Shown here one piece after another: positions 209 through 62,978 of a stretch of DNA of 64,000 nt. This DNA comes from Paraspadella gotoi (taxonomy: Eukaryota; Animalia; Chaetognatha): positions 2,060,677 to 2,124,676 of the forward strand of contig CM119271.1 of NCBI GenBank assembly GCA_051294375.1. The letters are read 5' to 3'. The first letter of the stretch is position 1. Each line of letters opens with the position of its first letter. The position numbers were made by a program, and so were the translations under genes. Under the pieces are notes generated by a model. It was not told the origin of the DNA. It made no database searches and saw nothing but the letters and a program-made list of their open reading frames with translations.

Positions 209-7109
<6,901 letters not shown>

Positions 7110-7114
<5 letters not shown>

Positions 7115-7408
7115 TAAAGGGGATCAGGGATATGATAAGCAGGTCGCGGATGTGATAAAAAGGGAATCAGGCATGTGGTAAGAAGGTATTCAGGGATGTG
7201 ATAAGAACAGGATCAGGGATGTGATAAAAAGTTAAACAGGGATGTGGTAAGAAGGGAATCAGGGATGTGATAAAAAGGGAATCAGGGATGTGGTAAGAAG
7301 GGATTCAGGGACGTGATAAGAACAGGATCAGGGATGTGATAAGACGGGAATCAGGGATGTGCAAAGAAGGGAATCAGGGATGTGATAAGAAAGGGATCAG
7401 GGATGTGA
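7110..7408. repeat. ~23-25 bp minisatellite (gggaatcagggatgtgataagaa) at the 3' end of the GPCR gene
   Basis: About 12 degenerate tandem units are visible. Confidence 0.9.
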
Positions 7409-8679
7409 AATAAAGGCGGAATCGGATTAAATTTAGTTCAATCGAAATCATTGAGAGAAATAGCATACGACAGAACAAAAAATCAACTGTTATATAAAAA
7501 TGTTTCTATTACTTTATTATATACTTCATTTTATAAATAAAAAAATGCTGTGAATAAAACATTGCGCTGTATCGACTACATTAAGATGAGATTCTACTCG
7601 TTCCCGATATCATTCCAAATTATTTTTGTGTCGAATAAAAGAATTTGTTAAAACGTCTGAAAATTTATTGTAATAATGGTTAGTCTTAGCGTTTAATGAT
7701 TAAGCCCAAATTTCATATTTTTTCGTTGATTCAAATAATTTCAAAAATCTGATTTGACGACTGTTCTTCCGCCAGAAGTGTAGACAACTGTACTCATAAG
7801 ACATAACAAACTTGAATGCATATATTAGTGGTCCATTTCCTGCGATGATATATACATATTAAAAAAAAATAATTTGAACTACCACCAACAGTGTGATAAG
7901 ATGTAGATTTGTTTTTGTTTTCAAATCTGACGGAGAGAGGGAGCTTGAGAGCGCTTTTTTTCGGGACAGAACAAAAAGTCAAAACCTTCCAAATCCTTCA
8001 AAGAACAAAAATTAATCATAAAGTTAACGAACGTGTTGACTGATGAATTACATTTGTAAGTGAGGAAATTATAATACTAGAAGTTTACCCATACCCCATG
8101 TATGTCATGGTCTTCAACGATATTTCGATACTGTCCCTGAGGCTGAACTCAGAACTGACAGTCAGGGGATGACAGGTGAGTACCTAGTATTTTATAAATT
8201 ATATTGTAGTATTATAAATAATATTATTGTATTATAAATTTAAATATATTTTTTTATAAAATATGTATAACACAAAACTGTATATTTTAATTAATAAGTT
8301 AAGGATTTTGCTATGTTATCGGCCATAGACATAGCTCACATAACTAATCGAGAGCAGAATGAAATTTGCGCAAACAAAATGCTCAAGTCTCAATTATTTG
8401 TTTTCGATTTTAGGTTTTCAAATGACAATTTATTTCTAGGATCATTTTGTCTCAGTCTACAACGAAAAAGAGGAGCCCATATTTTCTCAAACTTCATTTG
8501 TTTACCATTTTAAATTGTAAAACTAAAACAATCCATTTATTTTTCAAGTTCAATAGTCCATAATAGACACGATTTTCTTTAAAGGTTGAACTTTGATATT
8601 AAAAGTTTTAACACATTCTGACAATAACTTCATACAACCTTTCAGCCGAATCGCACGCAAATCAAGTTGACCAACGAAT

Positions 8680-19684: not shown

Positions 19685-22600
19685 TTAATCGTTACCCAAT
19701 TTTTTGTCGTCTCCTTGAAGGTGAAGAGAAGTCGTTGAGGAAAGGGAAAACTTCATGGATCCTCCAGCGAGGCCGCTCGAGAGGCCGGCGGTCATTACGC
19801 CGCTAAATCCCGACGCCGTGGAATAGAGGGAAGACGTTTCCGCCTTTAACAAAATAGCATCTTTCTGGGCGGAGATGAGTTGCGAAAAGTTTCTCTGCGA
19901 GGGAGTCAGCACCTTTTTTGAAAATAAAGATCGGGGTGGAAGTGGGAGAATAAACTTTAATTTAACTTGCAAATATATTTTTTGGAATAATTAATTTGCA
20001 ATATATAGCTAATTTGTACCAACGATGGATCTGATTGTCTCGCTCAATTATTATTATCTCCTTGTTTATTTGTGTTAATATAAAACCCCTCTAATTTCTC
20101 CGTAATAAACTATTTTAAACGATCGTATAAACTTATAAACTCACCATGCGAATTCCGTCGACGGCGCGAAAAAGTGCGTCGGGGTCGACCGACTCTGGCA
20201 ACTTGGAGAGAAACTGACCCAAGAGGATGAAGTCGAGAACGAGGAGGTCGTCTTCGAAGAGCGAGAGGATCCCCAGCGCAGCGCGGAAGAGAAACTCGTC
20301 TCCGTCGCGGAGGAACACATCCCACACGCGACACGCTACGTCCAGGGGAAGTGCCTGGGGTGGAAAGTGGGTTAAGTTATGAATGGGTAACATCACTCAT
20401 CAGTTTTTAAAAAGAAAACTTACCTTGCAGTAGAGCGTGAATATCCACTCGAGGAGGTACATTTCCGGCGTGAACGTCAACTCGGAAAAGTGATTCCAGA
20501 GAAGGGGGAGGTTTTCCTTGAAAAACTCGTCGTAGGTGGAAAAGTAAATCTTCATCAAGGGTTCGTCCATGCGGAAAAATGCCAACTGGAATGGAGAGAT
20601 AAACGTTTGAGCGGTGAAGAGAACGAAATGGTCGTCGAAAGTGGAAAGTCACCTGACAGGGTCGGTTTAGTAAGTTGGCGAAGGATATAAACGCCTCGGC
20701 GACGTCCATGTTGAGAAGGAGAAACGCTGGGGGAAAAAAATACATTAAAATAAATAAATCAATAACAATAAACATTTTTTTAAAAAATTTCAGCTGTATT
20801 ATGTAATTTAGTACGATCAATTCCAAATCTAGATTAAAATTTGAATTACCCGCCAGAAAAGACATCCCTTGGACGTATCCGACGTCGGGACGGTAAGTCG
20901 CGTAGGCGCCCAACAAGCTGTGCAGGATGTCGTAGTAGGGGCCGCCTTGTTGAAATATGCACAAGTGGGGAAAGGTTCTGGAAGTGAAAAGAAAAGCAGG
21001 GAAATATGGTTTAGATCTATCGTGACGCAAGTTTATCTTCAATTTGAACTTTTTATGACTCAAAGCGTCGAACCGAGAGACGTCGAGGCGGATCAAGTCG
21101 ACGGTTCCCTCCCGATCGAAGGGCGAAGCGAAGGAGGAAAGACCCGAGAGCGAAGATCCGTCGGGAGAGTCGGATCCATCTGGCGGAGAAAGGAAGAACG
21201 AGGGACAGGACGGCGAGACCTGAGAAAAAAAAAGTGTAATGGATTATTCGATACCTTACCCTTTCAGCATTCAAATCGTCTTACGTGAATTCCGGCGGGA
21301 GATTCGTCCAGGTTTTGACAGGAGCTGGACGTCACCAATGACGCCGAGGTAGATGGACGTTGCAGGTGAACGGCGGCGGCGACGACGGGACAGCATGACG
21401 GGGCGACGGGCGGGACGTCGGCTTCGTCGACGATCGCTTCGTTATCGGCGGGTAGGTTCGCTTCGAGCGGGTGGGGATTCCGCGGATGGGAAGGGGACGA
21501 GTTGGAGGAGACGGCCGCTGGTATCGACTGAGGAAAGAAGCAAGCGAGAAGTAGGAAACGTGAAATCTTCGGGTGATCCTTTATCGAACAAAAATACGAA
21601 ACGCGCTTGGATGGGGAAAAAAATCTCACCGTCTGACTCTGAGCCAAGGAGCGCGGAGTTCCGCCCGTGAGACTTTGGTGAAAGGCTTCTCGGTTCTCCC
21701 TCCGTTTCGCCTCGTGCATCGCCATCAGTTTTAAAGCGCGAAGAGCGCAGATTTCGTAGAGCTGACCCGTGATGTTCAAGTCGTTTCCTGGGGGGTGGAT
21801 GGGATGAATTAAATAATATTTATAAAAGTGATTGCTCTAGATGAGATGATGACGTTTAAAACCCAACCCACCGATGGCCAAGCGCCAGACTTTGCCGCGG
21901 ACGGCGGACGGGAGACCGTTCCACCACAAATCCCTCGTTCTTCTGAGGCCCTTCTCCCGATCCCAGTTGGGCAGAATCTCGATGAGCCAGATCTTGGACG
22001 CCTCCACCCGGGCGTCCTCAGCCTTGAGCCTCTCCGCCACCTGTTTCCGCTTGATCTTGGCCTCTTTCATCTCTCGCTTCTTGGCCTCTTGCACCATCTC
22101 CTCGTAAAGTTGTCGGTGTTTCTGTTCCTCCTCGAAAGACTTGGGCGGAAGGTTCGCCGGACGCGGCTGAGGAAAAATAGAGTAGGTTGGTGATAAAAAA
22201 CGTTCCTGAAATTTCTCGAATTTCATTATTTCATAACAATCGTTATCGATGTATCAATGACACAGAGAAGTCAAACACACAATGAGTTAATAAACTAGAC
22301 TATGAGAGGTATTTACCAACATAGCCTGTCCAAAGTCGGGGGCAATAAAGCTAGTTCATTGATTGAATGAACAATTCATTCGGTTAAATCACCTGAAGAA
22401 TAAGCGCCGTCGTGGAACTCGGGACGACCTCTTCTCCGGTCAACGAGGACGTGGATCCGATGACGGAATCTCTCAACGACCCCAGGACCTTTTTGGGCGA
22501 GGCAATCGTAATGGCCGCCGGCGAGAGGGGCGGCGCCGACGCCGCCACCGTCGACTCTTCCTTCCCTTCATCCTTGGATCGTGGGGAATCGCTAGGGGTC

Positions 22601-28551: not shown

Positions 28552-31500
28552 TCAAAAGGAAAACATGTTGTCATCATCATCATCATCATCGAAATCATCG
28601 TAAACGTCGAATTGGAAAGACTCGCATTTAATTTTAAAGGGGGCGTTTTTCCAGGAAAACTTATACGGCGGCTGCGGTTTACGAGTCTTTCGGTCCGCGT
28701 ATTTCACCGACTCGGCCTTCAACGTGATTTGGGGTCCGCGGTAAGAAGTTCCCCTGCGAAAGGTGATCTCGACGCCGATCTTGTTATCGATGCAATGACC
28801 GCACAATATCCTTGGGTGTGAGAGTAAAACCGAAACTGTGAGAGTGAAACAAAAACGTAAATGATCGCAAAAGAGTCCATTTCATCCCCTTACTGATTTA
28901 ATCTATCCACTTCTCCGCCGTGGTCGCGGAAATTCGTCAGGTCTCTTCGCGCGATCCTATCCTCGACGCTGTGGTCAGTAACCAAATGATGGTTGGTTTC
29001 TTTGATCTTGACAATTTTATCGGCCGGGCAGATGAGCTTAAAGCATTTGGCGCAAACGATATCGTAATCCACCGCCATTTCCACATACTTTTTCCGATTC
29101 TCGCGCTCGGCTCTTTTCGTCTTGTAAATTTTATCTTGGGTCGCGCGGATTTTTTTCGTCCAGCGAGCCGGGTCCTCTCTGAACACTTGAGCGTAGCGAT
29201 CCAAGGCGTCGTTCATAGCTTTAATGAGGTTTTTATTCCGGATTTCGCGCTGATGCTCCGGTGAATCTGAAAACGGGCGACAAATCTTCAGAGTAAGAAG
29301 AGAGCTCGACTAAGAACGACGCTCTCGTCTAACATCTTAGCTCACCGCCAATGACTATGAGGTAACACTGCGAGCCTTCCTTTCTCGCTCTGCCGACGGC
29401 CTGCGTCGCACCGATCTCGTTACTGACGAAGTGATATCGAATGACGACGTTGCACTGCGGGATGTCGATTCCTTCCTGAGCAATATCCGTCGCGACCAGG
29501 AGATTGTCGTAGCCGTTTCGAAAGCGATTCAAATTTTTTTCCACCTCGAGGTCGGACATCTCGTCTTGACCGACAAGGCGGACGGGACGGATGACTGAAA
29601 TTTCGAGAATGTGTAAACAAAGCTATTATCCAATACAGAAGGCTTCATATTATAAAATGTAGTACCCTTTTTTGTGACCAGAATCTGTTCCCACCAAACT
29701 ACCCAATCGAATTTAATGATATTTTACATTTAGAGTGCTAATGACTAATGACGCAGTCCCTGAGAAAAAAAACCAAAAAAACCCGATGTTGCGATAGCAA
29801 AATGATAACATGCACGAATGCGATGCTAAATTTTACGAGTTCAATCCTAATTCAATTTTTTTTTCTAATAAAGTGAGAGAGAGAGAGAGAAAAAAAGAAA
29901 GAAATCAAAAGGCAGCAGCAGAAGCAGCAGGAGAAAAGAGAGAGCCCTTGCAGAGCCAGCTGCATACTCGTTTTTTTCCCTACGAATCAGTGACTAGGGA
30001 AAAGAGAGAGGGAGAGAGACATATAATTAAAAGAGAAAAGAGAGAGAGAAAGAAATATAAAAATAAAAGAGAAAATTTGTTTGTTTTGATAAAAAGTAAA
30101 CAAAACATATTTAATAACTGTCCTGACTCAATTTTAAGCACATCGATGATGAGAAGCTGTATATAAATTTTCAGCTTCATAAACCCAAATTTAATCATAA
30201 AAAAGCGATCTATAATTTGGAACGCCGCCGACGACAACGACGCTAAGCGATTGCGACGATAAAAATCCATTCGTATGATACATACCCTTGGATAGGGCCT
30301 CATCGGACTTGATGATATCGATGGCGGCCACGGTGGAAAACTTATGTTGAACTAACAAAATCCCCCGCGCGTCGGGCGAAGAAAAGAGATTCAATAATTT
30401 TTCTTTGAGCTTATCGAGAATTGGATTCGCTTTCTCATCGACGTCCACGGAGAACTTTTCTAAATCCTTCACCCTCTGTAGATTAATTGATTGATTGATT
30501 GATTGATTTACGGACGATATGAATCCGCGGCTAAAAACTCCCCTTCCCCAAAACTCACCTCCCGCCAGAGATTTTTAACTTGATTGATAAACTTCATTTC
30601 GGATTCGTCCTCGAGCGCGAGAAACGGAAGACGCTCGTTTGTGTTAAGAAAGGTGACAACGTCCCGACAACGGAGAATTTTGAGAAAAGAAAACGCCTAG
30701 GGAAATAGATGATTTCTCCTAAATATACTAGATATACTACTACTATCCCTCCAAGACATTTGAAAGACTCACCTTGCTAAACTCTTTCAAATATCCCGCA
30801 GCCACGTTCCTCTCCTTATCGTTCTCCTCGCACTCTCTCATGATTTTATCGATTTTCGTCAAAGCCTCTTGCTCCCCGAGCGTCATGTCCCGCAAGTCGA
30901 TGGGCTTGTCGAGGAAACCAACGGCGTCTTTGACGAATCGAAAGAGGAAATCGGAGAAGCCCGAATCGAACCTTCTCCTCACCGGGAGAATCTCCTCCTT
31001 GCTCGGATCTGGACATTGTCGTCTCAGATCGTTGACTTCCGCCTGGGTTCGGGGAAATCGGACCTCAGAAGAGTCCAGGCTAGCGCACATGTCGCCCAAC
31101 TGTTTAAGGGCCTGCTTGGTAAGATCGCTTGGTTTGTTCGATTTGGTTTTTTCTCCTATAAAAAAAAAAAACAAAAAGAAAATTTTTGATTATCCTCATG
31201 ACTATTTCGATGAAGGCAATTCTCGACAGGAAGAAATTACCTGCACCCAAGGAAGCAGACAAACCGATTATTTGGGGAAGGCCTCCGTTGCTCGGTTGGT
31301 ATACAAAATCTTTAGCCTATACCCATATGTATGTAAGGATATATTAATGCTTGGTAAGAATTGGCAAACAGCACATCAGATTACCTCTTCAGTCGGTTCA
31401 AACTTAGTTATTATATATTGTTGCATGACTTTATTATTAGGGTGTTTTCCGGATGTATGATGGCATTCATCCATAATAATCAAAGATACTTGATCCAATT

Positions 31501-33260
31501 TAAAATTGTAGTTTTTTATCAGGAGCGCATTGACTAGAATCTGATTTAAATAATCCACAAAAACTCATGGCATCACAGGACGACATTGTTACTAAAAAAA
31601 AAAATACTTCATAAACTATTACCTGGGCTGTACAACAAACAACTTCCTTATTCCTGACACAGTCGATAAATTCGCTTGTATCTTTTGCGTTTCCGATGCG
31701 GAGATTTTGTGAGTTGAGACATTCAAACGTATCTGAGAATGATTATTGAAAATTACAAAACACTAACGATCTTCTTTATTAAAAACAAGATGAAATTCGG
31801 CACAAAAAAAAAAAAAAAAAAAAACTAAAATACAAAAAAGTTCAAGGAAATAACCAAATCTCGTTACACAAAAATCACAAAACAACGCAAAATAAAATCA
31901 CCGTCGTAAAGTTTCTTCTGCTGGTCGGCCAGATGACGAATAGGCACTAAAAATAAGCAGAGGAATTTTTTTCCCTCAATGGCAGCTTTCATGCAGTGGT
32001 ACTTGGTGATATATGCGGCAATGTGCGTCTTGCCTCCTCCTACGAAGAAACGCGTCGTATTTACAAGGATGATCTTTAGAAACCTAATTCACTTCTCTGT
32101 CGACCGACCTGTTTGTAAAACTATAATCGAGTTCTCTCCTCTAAGACCCGCTTCGGCCATGGACTTTTGGTAATATCTCAAACTCGTGAAAAGCTTGAGC
32201 TGTTCCTCGATCTTGTCGTGATCAATGTTACCGTCCTCCGTGGTGGGAAGTCGGCGAAAGACATCCTCGTCGATCTTTTCGCAAACAAATGACGATTCGT
32301 CTGACGTTGCTTCTTCCATCGTCGTCGACTCTTTCGAATCGACGATCAATTCCGAGACTTTCCCGTCCTTTAAAAAATAAGGGGGCGATTAGTATAACTA
32401 AAAATAATGGTCAATGAAAAATTGATTAAAACCTGGAAAAATGACGTCTCCTCGTCGGAGATTTTCTCGACATCATGATCTTCATCCGTCAAGTTGATCT
32501 CTTCGCCTTTGATGGAATCCGAAAGAGCCGCAACAGATAAGGAAGGATGCTCAAAGCTCCCGTCCGAACGAAGAATTTCCGGGTTGGCGACGGCGCCGTC
32601 CGCGTGTAGCTCATCGGCGGACATTTCCTCGTCGTCATAATCCTCTAAATGGGAAACGACGGTCGGTCGATTCCCCGCATTTTCCACGACGGTTTTCACT
32701 TCCGTTTCGTTTAAAGAAAAGTCAAGAGGCTTGAGAGTTTCTAATCGCTCGATATGATTAACTACCTCGCCAATTTCGGTGGCTTGAGAAGCCTGGATCG
32801 TCCCGAACGCTTGGCTCGAGGAAGGCGCGCGCGAGACGGACGACTCGTCATCCGATTCTGCGAAATGACTCGTCTGGGCGAGCGAAATATCGGAAGGCGC
32901 TGGGTTTTCAAATATATTCAAGTCTCGACCTCCCTGGGCCGTATATAAAGGCCACGTATCCACGGGATCCGCGTCGCCGGAAAAGGGCTCATTCCGTAAT
33001 CGAAGTCGATCCCCGTCGAAAAATTTGTCGATCAAATCGTTTCGGTGAACGTTTTCTAGAAAGTTTCCGAGGGAAGAGCAATCGTTCTCCGAGATAGAAC
33101 CGGTCTTGATGAGAAAGTCAAAAAATTGAAATGGCCTTTCGCATTGTTCCAAAACTCCTTTGGGAACTTTTGATGTAAATTTGATTTTTTCAAACTCTTC
33201 CTGTTTCAATTCCTCAGAGAGTTTTAACAGCGTGACTTTAAAATTGTCGTCTAAAGCCAT
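28552..33260 (-). CDS. DED-containing RIG-I-like receptor, copy 1 (DED - linker - DExH helicase - Zn-binding CTD - acidic tail)
   Basis: N-terminal DED with HRNDL; LRYYQ, VLQT|GGGKT, IIMDECHHT, LPQIIGLSASLG, RGILLV, LLVATDIAQEGIDIPQCNVVIRY, QAVGRAR; CTD CAKC...CGHC; tail DDFDDDDDDD. Confidence 0.92.
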
Positions 33261-34345: not shown

Positions 34346-37300
34346 TCAGAAAATGTCGTCGCCGTCTTCGTCGGAATCGAAATCGTCGTAGAGCTGACAT
34401 TTGTAGGATTCCGTCTTTACTTTAAAAGGCGCATGTTTCCACATGAACCTCGTTCTCGGAAGCGATCGTTTGCTTCTCCGATCAAAGTACTTGACGGCCG
34501 AAGCCTTGATGGATATTTGGGGGCCGCGGTACAAGAGACCCTTTTTGAATGTGATCTCGACCCCGATCTTGTTGTCCTTGCAAGAGTTGCAAAAGACCCT
34601 GGCTATTCTGTCGACTTCGCCGCCGTGATCGTCGTCGGACAAATCGTCAAACTCTTTTCTGTAAATCTTTTCCTCGAAATCATCGCCGACGAGCAGATGA
34701 TGATTGGTCTCGTTAATTTTAACGACCTCGACGGCGGGACAAATCGGCTCCTTGCAATGAGCGCAGACGATGTCGTAATCGGCCGCTTTTTCCAACCGCT
34801 TTTTCTTCTCTTCTCGCTTCTTCCTCTTCGTCACGTAGGCCTTTCTCTGTCGCTTCTCCATACTCAGCGTCCAATCGGAGAATTTCGGGCCGGAAGTTTT
34901 TTCCGCAAAAAGGGAGAGGGCATCATTCATGGCTTTGATGAGGTTTTGGTTCCGTAGCTCCCGTTGTTCTTCGGGGGATCCTTTAAATTTTTTTTTTAAT
35001 CATTATATTATGGCAACGGGGGACATGTTTGATGCCTGGGGTGTGAGGCATCTCCCGACAGCTGGCGCTCAGGGCTTTGGACCTGCAGTGACCACCCCAT
35101 GTCACTGGCGTGTTTATGCCGACACCATCACACTTTAACCAGCGTGACCGTGAGGGGATTGAACCCGGAACTCACGGTTGGTGAACGAGTACTTAGCAGT
35201 CCAAGCCAATGGGACGAGCTGAGTTTCACCAAGCTATACGGGGGGCGAATTTAGGATTCGCCACAATATCTGAAAAAATAACAGGATTTTTCATTTAGCG
35301 AACTTCCCCAAAATCTTACCGCTGATAACGAAAAGATAACACTGAGATCCTTCCCTCCGAGCTCGGCCCACTGCCTGCGTGGCGCCAATCTCGTCGCTCA
35401 CGTAGTGATATCTTATGACGACGTTGCATTGCGGGATGTCGATGCCTTCCTGGGCGATGTTGGTCGCGACCAGGAGATTGGCATCGCCACTGCGAAAACG
35501 GTCCAAGTGGGTCGTGACTTCGTGGTCGGACATCTCGGTCTTGCCGACCAAACGAACCGGATTGAGGACTGGAAAAAAAAATGTTAAACAATAAACATGA
35601 ACTAAAAATCTAAATTGTCATCCCAATGAAGTTGACATTTTTTCCACCTTCAGACAACTCCACGTCCGATTCGATGAAATCCATAATGGCCTTCGTCGTG
35701 AAACGTCGCTCCACGAGAAGAATCCCCCTCGTGTCGGGTTCGCGAAAAAGCTCCAGCAATTTTTCTTTCAGTTTCGCCAGAATCGGAGTCGGCTTTTCGT
35801 CGATTGACTGGGAAAAACTTTCGAATTTCCCTACATTCTGAAACGTAAATTTTGAAAATAGATGAAAGTTAAAACATGTAGCGGTAGTATTTCATACCCC
35901 GCTACTCGTCCGAAAATCAGCAGCGCCTATGGCGCCGGATGTAGCACGAGCTCCTCGCAACCCAAAGGACTCGGGCTCGCGGCCTGCTGATTCACAAAAG
36001 TAAAAGTGGGACGGGACGTGACGTCTAACCCACCTGTAGTGACGGACCACACACGGGAAGTTTTGGACCTTGTGTGCAACGACAGTGAACTGCTCGTGAC
36101 ATCGTCTTCCACAAACCCACATATGAGCAAAAGGCATTCTCTCATCGCCTCACCTGTCGCCAGAGGTCCTTGACGCGATTGATGTACTCAACGCTCGATT
36201 TCTCGTCCATCGCGTGAAACGGAAGTTTCTCGTTGACTTTAAGAAACTCGACGACGTCTCGACAGCGGAGAATTTTTAACAAAGAGAACGCCTTCGTAAA
36301 CAAAAGAAAGAAAAAAACTAAAAATAGTCATCGGCGCGGATAACAAATCGAGCAATTTACAACGAGTTTTACTCACCTTGCTAAACTCCATCAAGTAGCG
36401 AGCGGCTATATGTTTGTTTTGATCCGGATTCTCGGTCTCCTTCTCGACCATTCCGCCGATAGTGAGCAACGTTTCGTGCTCCCCGAGCTTAAGGTTCCGA
36501 ATATCGATGGGATCGTCGAGAAAGGACATCGCGTCCTCGACGAATCCGCGAAGGAGATTGTCGAAGAGGGCGTCGAATCTTTTTCCAACCCTAACGATCT
36601 CCTCCACACCCGGATCCGGACAATGATCTCGAAGATCCTCCCGCTCGGCCGCCGATCGAGGAAAAACGACCCTCGAGGCGTCGAGATTGTAGCACATGAG
36701 GCTCAATTGATTTAGGGCCTCAGTCGCTAAAGCTTTTCGTTCGTCGGATTTTGATTTGTCGCCTGGAAATGAGAAAAAATAGTATAAACATTAAGAGCAT
36801 GAATTTATTTTTCATCTACTAAAACGTACTACCTGCTCCTAAAGAAGCGGAGAGGCCAACGATTTGAGGAAGCCGTTGATTGTTAGGTCGATAAATGTCG
36901 TCGTTCACCTGAGAAAACAAGTTATATTTCGCGTCGGTATGTCCGTTTTTAGCATTTATAATTTTTCGAAAATCTTGCCTCTTCTTCGTTATCGAATTTC
37001 TTTAGGAGATATTGCTCCATGACTTTATTGTTCGGGTGTCCCCCGGAGGTATGGTGGCATTCATCCATGATAATTATGGAAACGTTGCGTAAATTAAAAT
37101 TGTAATCTTTGATTCGTAGAGCGTTGGCAAAAATCTGAATGTAAATTTGTAATAAATATTATGAAATTGGTGCAACCAAAACAAAAATTATCCGTTCATT
37201 TGATTAGAAGCTATTAATAAGCTATCTTGCCCCGGACTTTAGATAGGCTATGGTGGGTTAAGGCAACCTGCAATCGGCCAGTTAGTAAATATAAAAAAAA

Positions 37301-38650
37301 AAGAAAAAAGAAAAAAGTACTTGGGCTGTGCAGAAAACAACTTCGTTTTTTCTGACATTGTCCATAAATTCATCCGTGTCTTTAGCGATCCCGGTTCCCA
37401 GATTATGGGAGCTGAGACTTTGAAACGCATCTGCAAAAAAAAAAAAAAATATTAAAAAAGGGTCATGAGAAGATAATCGTGGAACCCCTACCATTCCAGT
37501 TTAATTTACCGTCATAAACCCTAAGCTGTTGCTCGGCCAAATGACGAATGGGCACCAAAAACAAGCAAAGAAACTTCTTTCCTTCCAAGGCTGCCTTAAC
37601 GCTGTGATACTTGGTAATGTACCCCGCGACGTGAGTTTTTCCTCCGCCTTATTAAAACCAAAATATATTTTATTTAATATTTTTAATATTAATCATCCCA
37701 CCGACCAACCTCGATCCTACAACACCTGTTTGTAATACGACGATACTATTCTCTCCTCTCAACCCTGGTTCCGCCAACAACTTCTGATAGTTCCGCAGGT
37801 TCGTGTTCAGTCTCAGCTGATTCAGAATTCGGTCGTGGTCGATCCCGAGGGTCGGAAGTTGTCGGAACACTTCCTCGTCGAAAACGCCGGGCGGAGCCGC
37901 GATTCGATTCGAGGAGCGGCGAAGGAGGGACACGTCGGGCCCGGCGCTCGAACGGTTCGACGAGGAGGATTCGGACGAAGCGCCGTCGACCTTCAGCGAG
38001 GACAACTCGACGGATAGTTCGAGGCGAACATCGATCGCCGGCGTCGGAGGATGAACCCAATCGACGCCTCTGTCCGATCTAACGACAGCGCCGTCCGATC
38101 TAACGGTGGCGCCGTCTGATCGAAACTCCTCGGAAGCGGTAGATGTTTCTCGCGTATCTACAATCCGTTTGATCTCTGTTTCGTCGGACTCGTCATAATC
38201 AAATTGCAGGCGATGACTAGAAACATCGCCAAGCGACAGAGAGGCCTGCGAAACCGACGAAGCGAGGGGGACATCTCGGGAAGGAGACCCCGTTTGTCCG
38301 GCAAGAGGGTCGGAAGGTGCGGGGTTTTCAAATACATCAAAGCCTTGATATAATAACGCGCCAGCGCAGGGAGGTTCATTGTTGAGACGGAGTTTGTCCC
38401 CTTCGAAAAATCTGTCGACCAAATCGAGTCGGTGAACGTTATTGAGCGCTTGGCGAATGACGGAGCAATCGTGCTCAGTGATGGAGCCATCCTTGATAAG
38501 AAAATTAAATAATTCGAAAGGCTTTTTGAATTGTTCCAACTTTCCAGTGGGAACATGTTTTTGAATCAAAAACTTGATTTCTTTAAACTGTTCATCAGTC
38601 AACTCCTCTGATATTTTGAGCAAAGTTACGAAAATTCCATCCAGAGCCAT
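34346..38650 (-). CDS. DED-containing RIG-I-like receptor, copy 2
   Basis: DED with HRLDL; LRNYQ, GGGKT, MDECHHT, LPQIVGLSASLG, LLVATNIAQEGIDIPQC, QAVGRAR; CTD CAHC...CNSC; acidic tail DDFDSDEDGDD. Confidence 0.92.
35009..35265 (-). mobile_element. Solo LTR (257 bp) of a tRNA-headed, twister-containing TRIM family, inside RLR2 intron 34981-35319
   Basis: The - strand starts TGTGGCGAATcctaaATTCGCC and ends GTTGCCATA; 4-bp TSD ATAT (35005-35008, 35266-35269); A-box-like TGGCTTGGACTG and B-box GGTTCAATCCC; module order matches the LTRs at 54942 and 55436. Confidence 0.85.
35061..35143 (-). ncRNA. Twister ribozyme, P5-type permutation with P3
   Basis: GCUGGU uaaa GUGU GA UGG UGUCGGCA UAA ACAC GCC AGUGAC-augggguG-GUCACU g CAGG UCCAAAGC CCUG agc GCCAGC. 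P5, P2 (ACAC/GUGU), P3, P4 (CAGG/CCUG) and pseudoknot T1 (CCA/UGG) all pair; predicted cleavage U35116|A35115. Confidence 0.88.
35877..36121 (+). mobile_element. Degenerate or related LTR-like insertion in an RLR2 intron
   Basis: Starts TGTAGCGG...CCGCTAC hairpin then cgtccg, like the TRIM LTR; tRNA-like segment sharing caacccaaagg with the 60.5-kb element; partial twister-like core GUGG GA CGG GACG-UGA-CGUC UAA CCCAC. 3' end and TSD unclear. Confidence 0.5.
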
Positions 38651-38913: not shown

Positions 38914-41900
38914 CTAATCCTCATCGGAATCGCTAAGTTCCGGCGGTTTGATCCTGAAAGACTCCGTCTCGATTCGAAACGGGGCTTTGTCCCACGCGAA
39001 ATAGGACTTGGGTTCGGCACGACCTCCTTCCTTTCTGTACTTGACGCTTCTGGCCGCGATACAAATCTGAGGTCCTCGGAATCTGATGCCTTTGTTGTAT
39101 GCAATTTCGACTCCGACTTTCTTCGTCTTGCATTCGCCGCAATAAATTCTGATGAAGAATGATTGTATAGTTTAAAATTCTACAAGAATCCAGGTCCACA
39201 AAAAACTTTCCTAACGCGTACCCTTCGTCTCCCGGTGGCCTGTAAATCCTATCTTCAATCGCTTCTTTGTCCCTGACAAGATGGTTGCTGGTCTCCTCGA
39301 TCTTGACTATCTCATCCGCGCCGCACAATGGATGGTGACACCCGGCGCAGACAATCCAGTAATCGTCAGGGTCGTTTTTTGCTCTCGAGCTCTTGCATTT
39401 CTTTTTGCCAGACGCGTGTTCTTGTGTCTCTAAAACCTTCTTCTTCCATTTCGTAGTGTCGTCGTTTTTACATATTTTGGCGTATTGAACCAAAGCGTCC
39501 TTCATAGCCACTATTAATCGACGATTGTGTTCTTCGTGTTTTTGCTCGGGAGATCCTGAAAGAGTGTAACCAAGGATTACAAATCATGTCAATTCTCTAA
39601 CAGATTAAACCACAAACCCCTCGTTCACCTTGAATAACCAGTAAATAACACTGAGAATCTTCCTTCCTCGCTCTACCGACCGCCTGCGTGGCTCCAATCT
39701 CGTTGCTGACGAAATGATAACGAATGACGAAGTTGCATTGCGGAATGTCGATTCCTTCTTGAGCAATGTCCGTCGCCACCAACAAATTGCATTCTCCTCT
39801 ACGGAATCGTTCCAGGTTTGTCAGTCCAACGTGATCCGACATTTCCGTTTGACCCACGAAACGACAGGGGCGAATCACTGAGAGAAATGTTTCGTATTTG
39901 GCATCGAATAATAACGTCGTCCGCGCCGAACCAAAACTAGAATCTAGAACCTTTGGACAATTCCTCATCTCGCGCCACAAATTCTTCGATAGCTTCGGTA
40001 GAGAAGCGTTGTTGAATGAGAATAATCCCGCGGGATTCCGGAAGAGAGAATAAATGTATCAATAGCTCTTTAAGCTTCTTCAATATGGGATTTAAAGTTG
40101 CATCCACAGACTTGGCATTTGTCCGCAAATCCGGAAGATTCTGTGAAAAAAAAAATATTACGCTTAAAACTATTTATATTTTCCAAAGCTAGTAACGGAA
40201 TAAGCTGTCGTAAAACCAGGAAACGCGTTAAAAGTAATTATTTTAACCTTTTCCCATAGGCCTTTCACGTGATTAATATACTCTTTGTTCGATATCGTCT
40301 CTTGATGATTGGGAGAAAAAGGAAGATCTTTGTTGTTTTCCAGAAACTGAACCACGTCCCAGCATCGCAGAATTTTTAAATGCGAAAAAGCCTGTTCGAA
40401 TCGATAAGGAATAACATAAATAAATTAAATTGTATTCATCGGTAATTTTGACAAAGTTGCCTTGCCTTGCTAAACTCCTTGAGATAGTCGGCGGCGATTT
40501 TTCTCTGCTTATCATCGGCTTCAATTTCTCTCTCGATAATTTTGTCGATCTGCTTCAAGCCTTCGTCGTCGCCGAGGGAGATCGTCTTCACGTCGACGAC
40601 GGGCTCTTCGAAAAATCCCAGGGCCTCCGTGACGAAGCGATGCAGGCATCGGTAGAAATCCTGGTTGGGTCTCGTTATGACGGGAATGATTTCCTCCTCG
40701 GCCTGATCGTGACAGTGTTTACTGAGGCTGGCTTTTTCCGCCTCCGTTCGCGGGAAGACCACGATGGAACTGTCCAGATTTGCGCAAATGAGCAGCAGCT
40801 GTTGGAAAGCTTGTTTCGACAAGTCTTCTCGTTCTTCCGACTTGGTTTTGTCGCCTGGATGGAGAATGTCAATTTTTTTTCTCCTTGTAATTCGCTTTTT
40901 TAAAAATTCTTTTATTTACAAATCATACCAGCTCCTAACGAGGCAGAAAGTCCAATTATCTGAGGAAGATCCCGAACTCTTTTTCCACCCTGGACATAGA
41001 CGGGACTGATTGAAAAATTGGGAGGACTTTTCTGGGATCGCGGCCAATCTCGAAAATTTTACCTTTTTGTCATTCATATAATGGGCCATGGCCCGCTGGT
41101 TGGGATGCCCTCCTGAAGTGTGATGACATTCATCCATGATAATCAAAGACAGTTTGCTCATGTCAATCCTTTTATCATTGAGAGCATTAACCAAAATCTA
41201 ATTAAGTTATTCGCAAAATAATTAATCAGAATTGAATCTAAAGACGCAAAAAACTTTAAAATACCTGCGCCGTGCAAAATACCACTTCTTTGTTTCTCCC
41301 TTCCTTTTGTATATTCATTAATTCATCAGTATCTTTCGCAATACTAGTCCCAAAGCCTTGAAACGCTTCTGAGTAAACAAACGGCACAATGTTCATTGTT
41401 CAAAACAGGATAATTGGTTTCTTTCTACGATCAAGCATTACTCTAAAATGTACCTTGGTAAACCCTCTGCTGTTGTCCGGCCAAATGACGAATGGGAACC
41501 AAAAAAAGGCACAGAAATGATTTCCTATCAACAACTGCCTTCATGCTGTGATACCTCGTGATGTAGGCGGCAATGTGAGTCTTTCCCCCACCTAATATTC
41601 AATATATTAAGTTTAAGATTTATTCCCAAATTAAAAAAACAAAAACAATAACCAACCACAACGTCGCTACCGGTTTGCAAGACGACGATGCTATTCTCCC
41701 CTCTGAGACCCGGCTCCGCCATTGACTTTTGGTAATCCCTCATTTCCGCCGAAAACTTCAATTGCTTGAGAATTCGATCGTGATCGATCCGGCCGTCGTC
41801 GAGCGTCGGCAGTTTTCGAAACACGTTTTCGTCGATGGCGAAGTCAGGACTGCTTGGGTCGGCGTCGGAAGCTGCGTCGGACTCATATTTTTTCGTTCCA

Positions 41901-42809
41901 GTGATCTCAAATTCACTCGGCCCTGCATTCGTAAAAACCGCTGAATCCTGAAGCAGATTAACAGAGTTTTAATACTTTCGACATTTCTTAAAACGTCTTT
42001 AAAAAAAACCGCACCCGAGGGCAGGCTCCGAGATTATCCAAAGAGACTTCAACCGCGTTGGCCAAGACGACCCCGCCGTCCGCTTTAACCTCTTCGGCGG
42101 CTGGAGGGACTCTTCGCGGTCCCGCGCTGTCAGAAAAGACCTCTCTTCCGGCATCAATGTCCGAAAGGATAGCCGGTCGAGCGTCCGCGGAATCCGCGAC
42201 ACGTTTGACCTCCGTGTCCGACGATTCAAAGTCGATCGGCTTCAGAGTTTCCATTCGCAGATCATAAGGAAGCTCGTCGACGGAATTCGGCGGAGCGCTT
42301 CCCTCGGAGACGCTCGTCGCGGCATGAGAGATAGAAGATGCCAGTGGAGCGGTTGAAGATGCCGCTCGCGAGACGGACGAACCCGCTCGAGAGACGGTCG
42401 ACGCTGGCTGCGTGGGTTCGGTGGAGGGAAAGACTCGTACGGGGCTTTGAAACATGTCGCATGGTTCTTCAGTGGGATAGAAGTCTCCGCAATCCTGCGG
42501 CATCGTCTCGCCGAAAGAGCAGTCGTCGTTGAGTCTCAACCTGTTGCCGTTGAAGAATTTCGAGACCAAATCGTTTCGACCCACGTGACGGAGAGCATCA
42601 CGCAACGCCGAATAGTCTTCATATTTAATTACTTCGTTCTCCTTTAACAACTTAAACAATGCTTTCGCGTCTAAACATTTTTCCATCTGACGATCCCCAA
42701 GTTGATCTTGGAACAAAAACTTTACGCCTTCGAAATCTTCTTGAGTTACCTCCTTGGAAAGGCTATACAATTTAACTAAGTTAGGGTTTAGGTTGAAGGA
42801 AGCAGCCAT
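38914..42809 (-). CDS. DED-containing RIG-I-like receptor, copy 3
   Basis: DED with GRNDL; MRDYQ, GGGKT, IIMDECHHT, LPQIIGLSASLG, LLVATDIAQEGIDIPQC, QAVGRAR; CTD CAGC...CGEC; ends ELSDSDED-stop at 38914. Confidence 0.92.
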
Positions 42810-43303: not shown

Positions 43304-43329
43304 TGTGGCGGTATATTCACACCGCCTCA
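43304..43329 (+). mobile_element. 26-bp 5' stub of the TRIM LTR
   Basis: tgtggcggtatattcacaccgcctca matches LTR positions 1-26 at 54942 with one difference. Confidence 0.7.
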
Positions 43330-43603
43330 ACTAGCTAAATATATATGTTCAATGTGATAACTTAAACCATAATTTTTAAATTTAATGTTAAGATCATTAA
43401 CACGACTTCCTAATTTTATTTCCAAATTTTTTTTTTTTTTTTTTTTCTGAAAAGAAAACAGAGCAAACAAATAATTGCGGGAATGGTTGCAAAAATATCT
43501 TATGTCAACAATAAACGAGAACAAATAAGGGGAAGATAAAAATGAAAAAGAAGAAGAGATCGGGAGACAAAGTCAAGCAACTCCGTCCACATGAGACGGC
43601 AAC

Positions 43604-44011
43604 TCAATCACGGGACTTCGGGAAGCGAGCAGGTCCCCGTTCTCGCGCTGAAGGCAGACAAAGTCTCTCAAAAAAGTGCTTAGACGTTTTGCCGATATCT
43701 AAGCCTGCATTCGTTGCTAGGAGTTTGGCGAAATCTTTTAAGTTTGAGAAAGCATCCAGGTCCCATGCCCCGAAGGTAGTAACAACCAGAGGGATGAAGC
43801 CAACGTCGGCCGGCAGTTTGCCTTCGTACTTAGCATGTTTGGCCTGGCGAGCTCGTTCCAGGGCATAGGTGGGGTTGAGGACGGTATGACCAAAACAGTC
43901 CTGGCGAAGGGGAGAGGTGACAGTAACATCAAAGGCTGTGGTGGTCTTGTTCCGACATCTTTTCCAACCACGGATTGTGAAATCCCCAGGTCTAGAGGCA
44001 TCATCCGCCAT
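43604..44011 (-). mobile_element. 3' fragment of a CRE-like non-LTR retrotransposon (restriction-like endonuclease domain)
   Basis: RPGD...AFDVTVTSPL...AKHAKY...FIPLVVTTFGAW matches the RPxD...DxT...K..KY...FxPLxxETxGxW pattern of CRE/R2-group REL endonucleases. Confidence 0.75.
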
Positions 44012-44014
44012 CCA

Positions 44015-44440
44015 TCATCCAAAAATGGACGAACCCACTTGGGAGTCGGTCGACGGATTTGAAACAAGTAGCGTGGATTTGGAGGAAGGAAAAGCTTGTA
44101 CTGGGCTTTGAAACATTTCGCATTCTTCCTGCGGATAATTGGGCAGCGCTGTCTTGCCAAAAAAGCTGTCGTCATTGAGTTTCAGAATAAAGAATTTCGA
44201 CACTAAATCGTTTCTAACCAGGTGACTGAGAGCATCGCGCAGTGCAAAATAGTCATCATCCTTAATTACTTCATTCATTTTTAACAACTTAAACAATGCT
44301 GCAGCGTCGGAACATTTTTCCATTGGACGCACCGGAAGTTGATCTTGAAACATAAATTTTAAGTCCCCAAATTCTTCTAGCGTCAACTCCTTGGAAAGTA
44401 GCAACAACTACACAAAGCTAGGATTTATCACAGAAGCCAT
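44015..44440 (-). pseudogene. Truncated fourth DED-RLR copy (DED plus start of linker), paralogue of copy 3
   Basis: MASVINPSFV-TAG-LLLLSKELTLEEFGDLKFMFQDQL...VRNDLVSKFF is close to the copy 3 DED; in-frame stop at codon 11; breaks off at the CRE-like fragment; upstream flank resembles 42810-43010. Confidence 0.85.
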
Positions 44441-54372: not shown

Positions 54373-59446
<5,074 letters not shown>

Positions 59447-60061: not shown

Positions 60062-62978
60062 CTACTCTTCGACGAATAGCGGCAAATCGCCGACATCGCG
60101 AGAGACGGAAAAGTTTTCCAACTCATTTCGACTCTCCTTCCACATTCGATCAGCGTGAGCCAAATCCGCGAGTTCCGCGCGGCGAAAGAAGCTGCGTCGC
60201 AGATCGGCCGCCACTGCGTCGCCGCGCCAGGCGCCGTCGCGGCGCGGACGCCCGAGGCTCCGCCAAGCGTTTCGCTTGGCCTCTTCGAAGGCATCAGTTT
60301 TTAAGGCAAGAGCGGCGTTTGTGGGAGCGGAGGCGCGAGTCGCGGCGGCGCGAGTCGAGGAGGCGCGGCTTTTGATGAGAGACTCGGGAGAGTAAAATTC
60401 TTGTCGCCAAAAGTACAATTGCAACATGTTGGCGGCGACGGAAGGCGAAACACGTGAGGAGGGGTTCCTAAAAATAATGTAAGAAATTAACATAGTATGC
60501 TGGACTAAAATCCACCAACCGTTCATCAGCGGCCATTGGTGCCGGAGGCAAGTCATTCGCCTCCCAACCCAAAGGTCCGGGGTTCTAGCCCGGTGGTCGC
60601 CTAGCAGTTTAGAGGGACGGGGCGCTTAACCCGCCTGTAACTCGGTGTTACAGCCTGATCCGAAGCTCAGGGACTGCTTAGTGCTTATATTGAACGGTTC
60701 TATCACTAACTCATAATAATAATTACCGTCTCTTCAATAGAATTATAAACTCCTGTAAGCCTGTAATCGGTACAAACCTCATCAACAAATGAACGAGAAT
60801 GTCCATCTCCAATGGCGCGCCTCCTTGGAGCACCGGAAGATCGAGAAGGCTGCTGCCATGTTGGTCCTCCAACTCGTCCTCGACGTCATTGTCAAAAAGT
60901 TGCAGAGCCAAACGACCCAAGTCCCAAGAGTCTTTGTCGACGGCGACTTTGGTCGAAGGCGAAATCTGAAGAGATACCAAAACAAAGTGACATTATTGAG
61001 ATCTTATCTCGTCGAAGCTAATGATTTCGACCACCTCTTTAAAGTTAGATAACAGCAGTCGATGATGACGCCCCTCTCCTCCGTTGAGATCGACGAAAAA
61101 ACTGGACGGAGAGATGGCGCCGTGAGCGATTCCGTTCGCGTGAAGATTCGCCACAGCCTCAAGACTTTGAAGAAACATCGAGACCCTTAAATCGGCCCCG
61201 GCGTCGCCCGTCTGCAGCAGAAACTCTTCCAACGTCAGATCAAACTTGGGCGTGACCACGAATTCTCGCGGGACGATCCTCCCGGCGCCGGAGGGCTCGG
61301 TCGTCGCTCCTTCCCTAAGGCTAACGATCCGACCTTCGCAGACGAAAGGGTGACCGGCGAGAGCGCCCGAAGAAAAACGTTTCGGCTCCTCGATCAATTC
61401 CTCCACGAGCGCCAACTCGAAAATTTTTTTCCGTCTCCCGACGGCGTCGCCGGCCAATCGATCCAAAGGCAAGGCGCAGAACTGAGTCTTGGGCGGTCGG
61501 CGTCGAGTCGAGGTCTTTCCTTCGCGAAGATTTATCATCGCTCGACGAACCCATCGCGAGACGCGGAGGGAAAAAGAGGATTGGTGAGAAGAGAAACGCG
61601 AAGACAAATCTATTTCCATGTCGTCCGTCTTTTCGCTGCGCCACTCGAGGGCGCTCAGAGATTTTGCGCTACGTCTATCGTTTTCGCTTTCTCCGCACAG
61701 TTCGTCGTCGCCGCGAGATTCGTCTTCTCCTTTCGACATCCGCTCGAAAGACGCCGAACCTTCGACTAACGGAAAACCCCCTGCAACGGACACGCCCACC
61801 GGGGAAGGCGAAAAGGGGATCTTGAGGTCGAAGGGGTTTATATCCGGGTGGACGGAGGGGAAAATGTTTTCTTCGTAGAGGTCGGACAAGGAGCCAAAGC
61901 TGATAAGTTAATTGTAACAACATTAAAATTAGTTTGTTCTACTAGTATTACATTAGGCAAAGTATTAAAATATGCTTAAAATTCAGACGACTGATTCATT
62001 TTCCAACGTAGTACGAGTTCATATTACATCTTGAAGGGTATATTACCTTTCGCGAATAATGTCAAAGCTTGAGGCGGCGGAGGCGGCGTCGTCAGCCGAA
62101 ACCCGCGGAGGAGCTCTCGCCTCCTCATCTTTTTCTTCTTCGGACTCCTCAACTACACCGATTTCAACGGCTTCGCCGACCGAACTCCTCGTCCACGCCA
62201 ATTTGGCGCCTTGGGCGAGGACATTCAAGCGTGATTCAGCGACGTCCGCGGCGTCTCCTCCAACGACAAAGTCCTTGAGCGTCTCAAAGTCGACGAAGTG
62301 ACGACGTTTTAAGTGCGGGAAGCTAGGATGGGCGAGAGGCTCATCGGGGGCGGTGAGTCGAGTGAATTGAGCGGCGGCGACGCGGCGGCAGAAGGGATTG
62401 CGGATCCAACGGGAGAGGAGTCTGGATCAAAATCAAACATTTACCCAGCTGGTTTTACATAGATCAAGTCAGTAACATGTTTTACAGCATTTGAATTAAA
62501 TATAATTTAATTCAACAATTTCATTTACATAAAGTAGTGTAGAGTAGTGTAGAGTTGACAAAAATTCAGGACCTGTGTCACTTCTTGGTATTAAATTGTA
62601 AATTCACTGTTATCATTAGTATAATAATTGATAATAATTGGTTGGTTTGGGACACTTAGCAATATTGTTTAATACTAATTCGGTATTATTATAGGAACCA
62701 TTCCTAGAACAATCCACACCTTACCACTTTTTTTGAAAACTACATCCAAAACCAAATCACATCCTCATTCCTCACCTGACGATGAATGCCTCTCGCGGTC
62801 GCGAGTAATCGACGACACGCTCGGCCAAACTCTTCATCGTCTCCAGCTTCCTCTCCACCGCCTTCCTCCTCTCCGCCTCCTCCTCCGCTCTCTTCCTCTT
62901 CTTCCTCGGGTGATCATTGACGCAGCGGAGGGAGGCGTCAACGACGCGGCGTTGCGCGCCCGCCGAGTGGAACGCCAT
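60062..62978 (-). CDS. PEAK/PINK1-related pseudokinase, multi-exon; linkage of the 5' exons is tentative
   Basis: LQSLEAVANLHANGIAHGAISPSSFFV (HRD replaced by HGA), RLLLSNFK (DFG replaced by NFK), DSWDLGRLALQL, LL...NPSSRVSPSVAANMLQLYFW followed by a C-terminal helical extension. Confidence 0.65.
60496..60715 (+). mobile_element. tRNA-headed, twister-containing element (divergent solo LTR or SINE-like) in a pseudokinase intron, antisense to the host
   Basis: TATG...CATA ends, flanks atag/ataa; tRNA-like acceptor stem GCGGCCAT/GTGGTCGC (60529-60600), A-box-like TGGTGCCGGAGG, B-box-like GGTTCTAGCCC; enclosing stem aaccgttca/tgaacggtt. Confidence 0.7.
60603..60678 (+). ncRNA. Twister ribozyme (P5-type), P2 imperfect
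   Basis: AGCAGUU ua GAGG GA CGG GGCGCU UAA CCC GCC UGUAAC-ucggu-GUUACA g CCUGA UCCGAAGC UCAGG GACUGCU; T1 CCG/CGG; predicted cleavage U60627|A60628. Confidence 0.75.

Follow-up and report, generated by a model that had tools for sequence, protein, structure and literature searches.

The insert in the last intron of the RNA-sensor gene RLR2 is best explained, with a probability of roughly 0.6, as a recently inserted solo LTR from a non-coding LTR retroelement of high copy number. Its predicted ribozyme likely serves the copying of the element, and RLR2 likely tolerates the insert as a passenger of small effect. The element family seems to combine two known kinds in a way not described before, and is a more interesting result than any effect on RLR2.

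On its minus strand, the 64-kb stretch of DNA analysed here (the window) carries RLR genes in a tandem array of three (28552-33260, 34346-38650 and 38914-42809), each modelled from sequence alone as a single open frame of 1000-1052 aa with a DED, helicase motifs and a CTD. RLR2, its last intron and the insert comprise the following features:

34346..38650, minus strand: coding region of RLR2, 1000 aa in 10 predicted exons, with DED, DExD/H helicase, pincer and RIG-I CTD (sequence-only model)
35319 (GT) to 34981 (AG), minus strand: last intron of RLR2, 339 nt, with a weak, A-rich acceptor
35266..35269, minus strand: upstream copy of the target-site duplication ATAT
35009..35265, minus strand: solo LTR of subfamily A, 257 nt, TGTGG...CCATA, sense to RLR2
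35155..35208, minus strand: tRNA-like stretch, with a box A-like element and a box B at tRNA spacing (4 of 1000 shuffles match the pattern)
35005..35008, minus strand: downstream copy of the target-site duplication ATAT

Pfam matched a DED (E 5e-17), Helicase_C and RIG-I_C-RD in RLR2, and the features of RLR membership were present, namely DExD/H helicase motifs, a helicase C domain and a zinc-binding CTD. Vertebrate-type N-terminal CARDs were absent from the Pfam matches, with the DED in their place. DED-bearing RLRs are a recognised invertebrate type as described in PMC8998645; RLR2 shares with them the N-terminal DED, the DExD/H helicase and the RIG-I CTD, the difference being the three tandem paralogs in this window. 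Both paralogs of RLR2 are intact (44% and 53% identical to it). The 10-exon model retains its frame and motifs and contains a single, terminal stop, ruling out that RLR2 is a pseudogene. GC donors were modelled at 36978 (RLR2 intron 4) and 40465 (one RLR1 intron), both on the minus strand. Upstream of RLR1, an orphan fourth DED exon (43604-44407, minus strand; E 4e-12) ends in a stop and is followed by a fragment resembling the 3' end of a non-LTR retroelement, with a poly(A) run near 43430; the exon is likely a partial RLR duplicate broken up by insertion.

Joining the exons that flank 35319-34981 yields one open frame down to the natural stop. The intron is made up of 78 nt, the 257-nt insert and one copy of ATAT, and its pre-insertion length of 78 nt agrees with that of the paralogous introns (73 and 79 nt). 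A previous sequence-only reading had described a solo LTR with ATAT duplications filling most of the 339-nt intron and lying, together with its twister, sense to the pre-mRNA in the last intron of an RLR gene. This anatomy is right, with the LTR accounting for 76% of the intron, and so is the statement that the other well-formed twisters (55064, 55558, 54757 and 60604) are antisense to their hosts, as they sit on the plus strand within minus-strand introns. Overall, of the five insertions that lie in introns of the window, one has the sense orientation (P 0.19), a bias in the direction that harm from sense copies would produce. The introns of RLR2 carry two further repeat insertions. The tRNA-like stretch is likely an internal Pol III promoter.

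Downstream of this stretch, the LTR contains the ribozyme candidate:

35061..35143, minus strand: type-P5 twister ribozyme including P5 (core 35133-35070), from Rfam, pairing and covariation
35115..35116, minus strand: predicted self-cleavage site U^A, from its position in the Twister-P5 alignment

Along the minus strand of the insert, the order of elements is P5, P2', GAUGG, a short P1, U^AA, P2, GC, P3 (7 bp), P4 with an 8-nt loop, and P5'. The marks of the P5 type were found in the RLR2 copy (the U^AA site, the GA-NN-G strand, and P1, P2 and P4 paired in P5 order), and the two pseudoknots with the L4 loop, T1 and T2, both pair. The match to the Rfam family Twister-P5 (RF02684) scored 22.2 bits (E 0.021) and did not reach the gathering score of 37.6, the P3 insertion being counted as a gap in this scoring; no Rfam match anywhere in the 64-kb window attained its gathering score. 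A twister descriptor pattern, in turn, matched three times in the window versus not once in 100 shuffles. Comparison with the copies near 55 kb revealed five of 22 pairs to be altered on both sides, including both T1 pairs, in a covariation test that covers three sequences from two subfamilies with a structure set by the analyst; two of 500 shuffles did equally well and slid partners gave none. More specifically, both T1 pairs differ on both sides between subfamilies A and B and T1 assumes a third state in subfamily E, while T2 is invariant. We take the twister fold of the RLR2 copy as real and its cleavage activity as predicted. Compared with RF02684, the likeness extends to the permutation, the U^AA site, P1, P2, P4, the 8-nt L4 loop, T1 and T2, and the differences are the added 7-bp P3, the very short P1, the T1 pairs UG/CA and the sub-gathering score. 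A type-P1 topology (Rfam 21.4 bits) was rejected, as half of P2 would be mismatched and T1 left partnerless, and the ARAGORN matches that overlie the twister when thresholds are relaxed are artefacts caused by its many helices.

The alignment predicts the cut at U35116^A35115, the very position given in the sequence-only reading, which had further called the ribozyme free of broken helices. As to pairing, this holds for P1 (short, a G.U plus 2 bp), P2, P3, P4, P5, T1 and T2. The intact helices do not, however, single out the RLR2 copy functionally, because twisters tolerate flaws in P1, P2 and P4, and natural twisters assayed without flanks are reported to be active in about 94% of cases (both in the part of PMC11662667 consulted).

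The LTR belongs to a family that is represented by four subfamilies in the window, further members being:

54942..55690, plus strand: two-LTR element of subfamily B, 749 nt, non-coding, with CCAT duplications
54647..54890, plus strand: solo or 5'-eroded LTR of subfamily B, 92% to the two-LTR element, its twister with extra mismatches
60478..60715, plus strand: solo LTR of subfamily E, 238 nt, with ATAA duplications and a tRNA-Gly-like cloverleaf followed by a P5-type twister (60604-60681)
35877..36123, plus strand: LTR-like insert of subfamily C in RLR2 intron 7, antisense, with a degenerate twister and no matching duplication

Subfamilies A, B, C and E are mutually 49-62% alike and follow a common plan of TGT...CATA ends and a tRNA-like stretch followed by a twister fold. 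Duplications of 4 bp flank three of the five insertions checked, in A (ATAT), the B element (CCAT) and E (ATAA), and were not found at the other two (the C insert and the B solo). The subfamily E twister is more distant and was found by a model built from the three A/B copies (E 7.8e-5), and that of subfamily C was missed by model R1. In E (60620-60635) and C (36020-36050), both on the plus strand, the 5' strand of P2 is one base short, leaving three pairs and a bulge, possibly a natural twister variant. The pattern of boxes A and B was matched in A (4 of 1000 shuffles) and E (2 of 1000), not in B or C; with its threshold relaxed, ARAGORN recovered the tRNA-Gly cloverleaf of E (3 of 500 shuffles), and neither Rfam nor ARAGORN at its default threshold called a tRNA in these LTRs. 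A fragment of 26 nt at 43304-43329 (plus strand) matches the 5' end of the subfamily B LTR.

In the two-LTR element, LTRs of 255 nt each (54942-55196 and 55436-55690) are identical and enclose a non-coding interior of 239 nt. One twister per LTR, with predicted cuts after 55090 and 55584, would release a unit of 494 nt. A primer-site-like TGG is located at 55199, two bases past the 5' LTR; no coding frame of note was seen in the element and no clean polypurine tract before its 3' LTR, as the sequence before 55436 is G/C-rich and mixed. The interior also contains, at 55234-55330 (plus strand), a 28-nt hairpin-forming repeat in three copies and a CT microsatellite. No two-LTR copy of subfamily A was seen in the window.

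A pattern scan for relatives yielded none in viral contigs or prokaryote genomes; its eight metagenome loci are chance matches, with neither the remaining twister parts nor LTR likeness. Another high-copy repeat, distinct from the LTRs, resembles a twister in its 3' half and occurs at 55811-55990 (plus), 37155-37264 (minus) and 22286-22376 (plus), in copies 76-77% alike and with no LTR ends seen (Rfam Twister-P5 22.7 bits at 55822-55921). Its copy in RLR2 intron 3 (37155-37264) is sense and lacks the 5' half; the repeat is perhaps a SINE or the 5' end of a non-LTR element. Minisatellite arrays were noted at 5022-5721 (period 64 nt), 7125-7446 (23 nt) and 56284-56451 (34 nt).

In all four public DNA runs, the ribozyme reached ~1,600-2,900 times the depth of its flanks at 98% likeness; as summed contig depth is no copy number, we read this abundance as hundreds to thousands. 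The LTR ends join many dissimilar flanks in these runs, and across ribozyme and competing hairpin (see below) no position varied at 5% of depth or more in three DNA runs. LTR position 35198 is private to the RLR2 copy, whose ribozyme has the sequence that prevails in its family, a young one of very high copy number. The absence of broken helices hence reflects youth, and the intact helices of a young copy from such a mass family need no selection by the host gene.

The filled junction 35008|35009 was bridged by at least 31 letters on each side in five of five samples from two studies, the other LTR junction in three of five. No empty site was found in the five samples among the junction joints listed (four in one comparison, 15 of 87 in the other), in contigs that lose rare alleles. 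One of the samples may be the source of the window itself, and four come from a single study, so that they may be related. A further run, X9 (guessed to be RNA), covers repeats only and none of the RLR2 exons. Of the RLR2 exon differences between samples, three of four are silent. Within the CTD exon, three linked differences at 34664-34672 occur in samples X6 and X8, two of them silent and one changing Glu to Lys. The homopolymer before the real acceptor (34987-34997) is two bases longer in three of five samples (X6, X7 and X8), probably by chance slippage.

How far the twister would act on RLR2 may depend on its folding in the intron, where a competing structure is predicted:

35127..35148, minus strand: competing hairpin, 35148-35142 with 35133-35127, 7 bp, sequestering the 3' strand of P2 and the T1/general-base strand

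The hairpin has a predicted pair probability of ~0.77 at all nine transcript lengths and -10.5 kcal/mol alone, and would be fully formed by the time transcription reaches the 3' half of the ribozyme. A folding model that leaves out both pseudoknots predicts that the LTR, in its context, prefers structures other than the twister, the active fold costing 11-13 kcal/mol in the intron versus ~3 for the bare ribozyme. Yet the hairpin may silence nothing, because it is also predicted in the element's own transcript, because 20 of 100 shuffles of the upstream sequence carry as high a penalty (A), and because the model omits the pseudoknots and puts the local barrier out of the hairpin at a low ~11 kcal/mol. 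An evolved, family-wide blocker is likewise unproven, as the penalty does not exceed that of shuffles (20 of 100 in A, 87 of 100 in B). In plants, a retrozyme family folds with its hammerhead 'blocked' (PMC4918200), and a retrozyme of that family is described as fully cut under a Pol II promoter (PMC9695139).

According to the passenger reading, the predicted twister likely serves the element's own copying, and in RLR2 pre-mRNA the upstream hairpin may delay or reduce ribozyme folding. The 3' splice site follows only 80-89 nt after the finished ribozyme, and most RLR2 transcripts would thus commit to splicing first; under this order of events, the cut would land mainly in the excised intron.

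The sequence-only reading had instead suggested that cleavage could compete with splicing, lowering RLR2 output or yielding a CTD-less transcript. As a side effect of the insertion, the twister might indeed cut much of the RLR2 pre-mRNA ahead of commitment of the last intron to splicing, in which case full-length RLR2 would be lowered and the 5' piece, devoid of pincer, CTD and poly(A) tail, probably degraded. We consider this unlikely. Splicing can be blocked by fast intronic ribozymes (Fong 2009 and Cpeb3, as described in PMC10919898), and the sense orientation and complete helix pairing of the RLR2 copy speak for such an effect. With the intronic HDV-like ribozyme of Cpeb3 it shares being a sense intronic, potentially splicing-competing RNA with self-cleavage (predicted here); in Cpeb3, however, the effect is measured and the next exon lies 9.9 kb away (PMC10919898), whereas the RLR2 twister is a young repeat copy 135 nt from its acceptor. 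The race window of 80-89 nt is short next to those 9.9 kb, and the predicted competing hairpin also counts against the effect. The real acceptor, at -1.9 bits lower than all but 2 of 30 others, may slow commitment; sense copies are the rarer ones in the window (1 of 5), and the two intact paralogs could buffer a weakened RLR2. Against heavy cutting speak the presence of the insertion in all five samples and the intact RLR2 frame. Cut transcripts could, moreover, be rescued through exon tethering or by RtcB, which re-ligates ends of this kind. A stable CTD-less RLR2 protein is unlikely, because the cut 5' piece would have no poly(A) tail.

Harm might also arise from splicing signals rather than catalysis, as acceptors in and ahead of the LTR score higher than the real one in a matrix built from 30 predicted introns only:

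35270..35284, minus strand: cryptic acceptor ahead of the insertion, 8.9 bits, 50 nt from the donor
35036..35050, minus strand: cryptic acceptor within the LTR, 5.7 bits
35219, minus strand: cryptic acceptor within the LTR, 4.7 bits

Because the LTR acceptors outscore the weak real one, any effect of the insertion on RLR2 could be independent of catalysis. If the acceptor at 35219 or 35036, or the older one at 35270, outcompeted the real site, a stop would follow 4-17 residues past the helicase exon, and acceptors upstream of the cut would place the twister in the terminal exon; all five alternative acceptors lead to early stops in the window's allele. The longer-homopolymer allele is different, in that acceptor 35036 would there add 19 residues in frame and keep the full CTD. 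Besides the small matrix, the intron lengths weaken this explanation, which we hold to be improbable: acceptor 35270 implies an intron of 50 nt, below all 31 modelled introns (shortest, 65 nt), and the pre-insertion length agrees with the paralogs. Intron length and reading frame also rule out 35270 as the true acceptor.

The suggestion that cleavage products act as RLR ligands gives the RLR2 copy no special role, because the other copies, whose number runs to some thousands, would supply most of the ligand. Ends with a 5'-OH are, in addition, poor ligands of RIG-I, which prefers 5'-triphosphate. That selection kept the insertion, be it for a role as regulated switch or for a supply of ligands tuning antiviral tone, is highly improbable, even though the insertion is found in five of five samples on haplotypes that differ at up to four sites in the next exon (four of these samples stemming from one study and perhaps being related) and hairpin versus P5 could work as a switch. 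The copy has almost the family majority sequence with no host-specific change visible, and two other repeat insertions sit in RLR2 introns as well.

As for the copying that the passenger reading assigns to the ribozyme, we put at about even odds that the elements are the first known LTR retrozymes outside plants and the first with a twister, that is, Pol III-driven, tRNA-headed TRIMs that copy via circular RNA. The absence of any run of three T from the sense strand of A and B (2% of shuffles alike in B) would suit transcription by Pol III. Alternatively, and on the unlikely side, the element might be a linear TRIM of the ordinary sort that forms no circle. The twister of the 5' LTR alone would then act, to trim off the tRNA head, and the RNA would continue beyond the 3' LTR as far as the first T-run and be copied through normal strand transfer. 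The first four-T run past element B indeed lies just 22 nt beyond its end (55712), the circle of B is modestly stable as modelled (z -2.4, 58% paired), and twisters and HDV-like ribozymes trim the 5' ends of non-LTR elements according to PMC7761336. Yet both LTRs bear the same ribozyme, with the same upstream sequence if Pol III starts within the LTR head, so both should be cut alike, and no terminal repeat would be left for strand transfer. That circular-copying twister LTR retrozymes, thousands of solo LTRs acting as self-cutting silencers in sense introns, and RLR2 as a dampened allele should all hold jointly is distinctly unlikely; if true, a retroelement would be turning down a host RNA sensor.

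Judged by its parts, the element resembles a TRIM of the Helenus type to which a ribozyme has been added, which would make it an LTR retrozyme of animals with a twister for the hammerhead. With the Helenus TRIMs, or TRIMp3 (Kojima 2024, PMC10886601), it shares the short, non-coding two-LTR organization, the solo LTRs, an LTR that contains a tRNA-like stretch and its boxes A and B (here a pattern match in A and E only) and 4-bp duplications, as in the animal families; some genomes there hold thousands of LTR copies, and the 749 nt of element B fall within the reported range of 311-1263 bp. In contrast, no ribozyme is described in the portion of that source consulted, where 'twister' is absent and 'ribozyme' occurs once, in a reference. 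Helenus consensus LTRs, in the part of the supplement covered, usually place the tRNA towards their 3' end, ahead of a T-rich stretch, and almost all of them terminate in CA, whereas here the tRNA-like stretch lies in the 5' half, followed by twister and hairpins, the LTR ends in CATA, and a clear polypurine tract is absent. Five twister-loop 8-mers gave six exact matches in this supplement (PMC10886601), none seen in an LTR twister context, in a text whose line breaks can hide matches.

Plant LTR retrozymes (Cervera et al. 2016, PMC4918200; PMC9695139), as far as described in these sources, likewise combine one self-cleaving ribozyme per LTR (predicted here) with a non-coding centre, 4-bp duplications, solo LTRs and a long-arm LTR fold in which the ribozyme is blocked. 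They differ in being plant elements with a hammerhead instead of an animal element with a twister, in LTRs of 300-400 nt versus about 250 nt and a tRNA-like head here, and in a circular RNA that is demonstrated there, while here we infer one. Rfam matched no hammerhead in the window, and the published retrozyme definition, with a hammerhead per LTR, does not cover the element. Since neither hammerhead nor polypurine tract was found on testing, we file it under neither Helenus nor retrozymes; by analogy, it seems to work like an LTR retrozyme with a Helenus-type promoter, with predicted cleavage and a presumptive circle. Known animal retrozymes are described as devoid of LTRs, PBS and PPT (PMC7761336), and the twister is already on record in non-LTR elements (PMC8501958; PMC6765202). 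In the literature searched, subscription journals and Repbase aside, no description was found of a twister in an LTR or of a ribozyme in a tRNA-headed TRIM.

For the RLR2 gene the insertion probably means little, barring a real drop in RLR2. A tRNA-derived promoter, as in Helenus, and a self-cleaving ribozyme, as in retrozymes, united in one LTR would extend LTR retrozymes to animals and assign a definite function to the twister, about whose roles in nature little is known. Where one genome holds near-identical, intact twisters by the thousand, many of them in short introns, it would become directly countable whether sense intronic ribozymes are purged and how much they cost host splicing.
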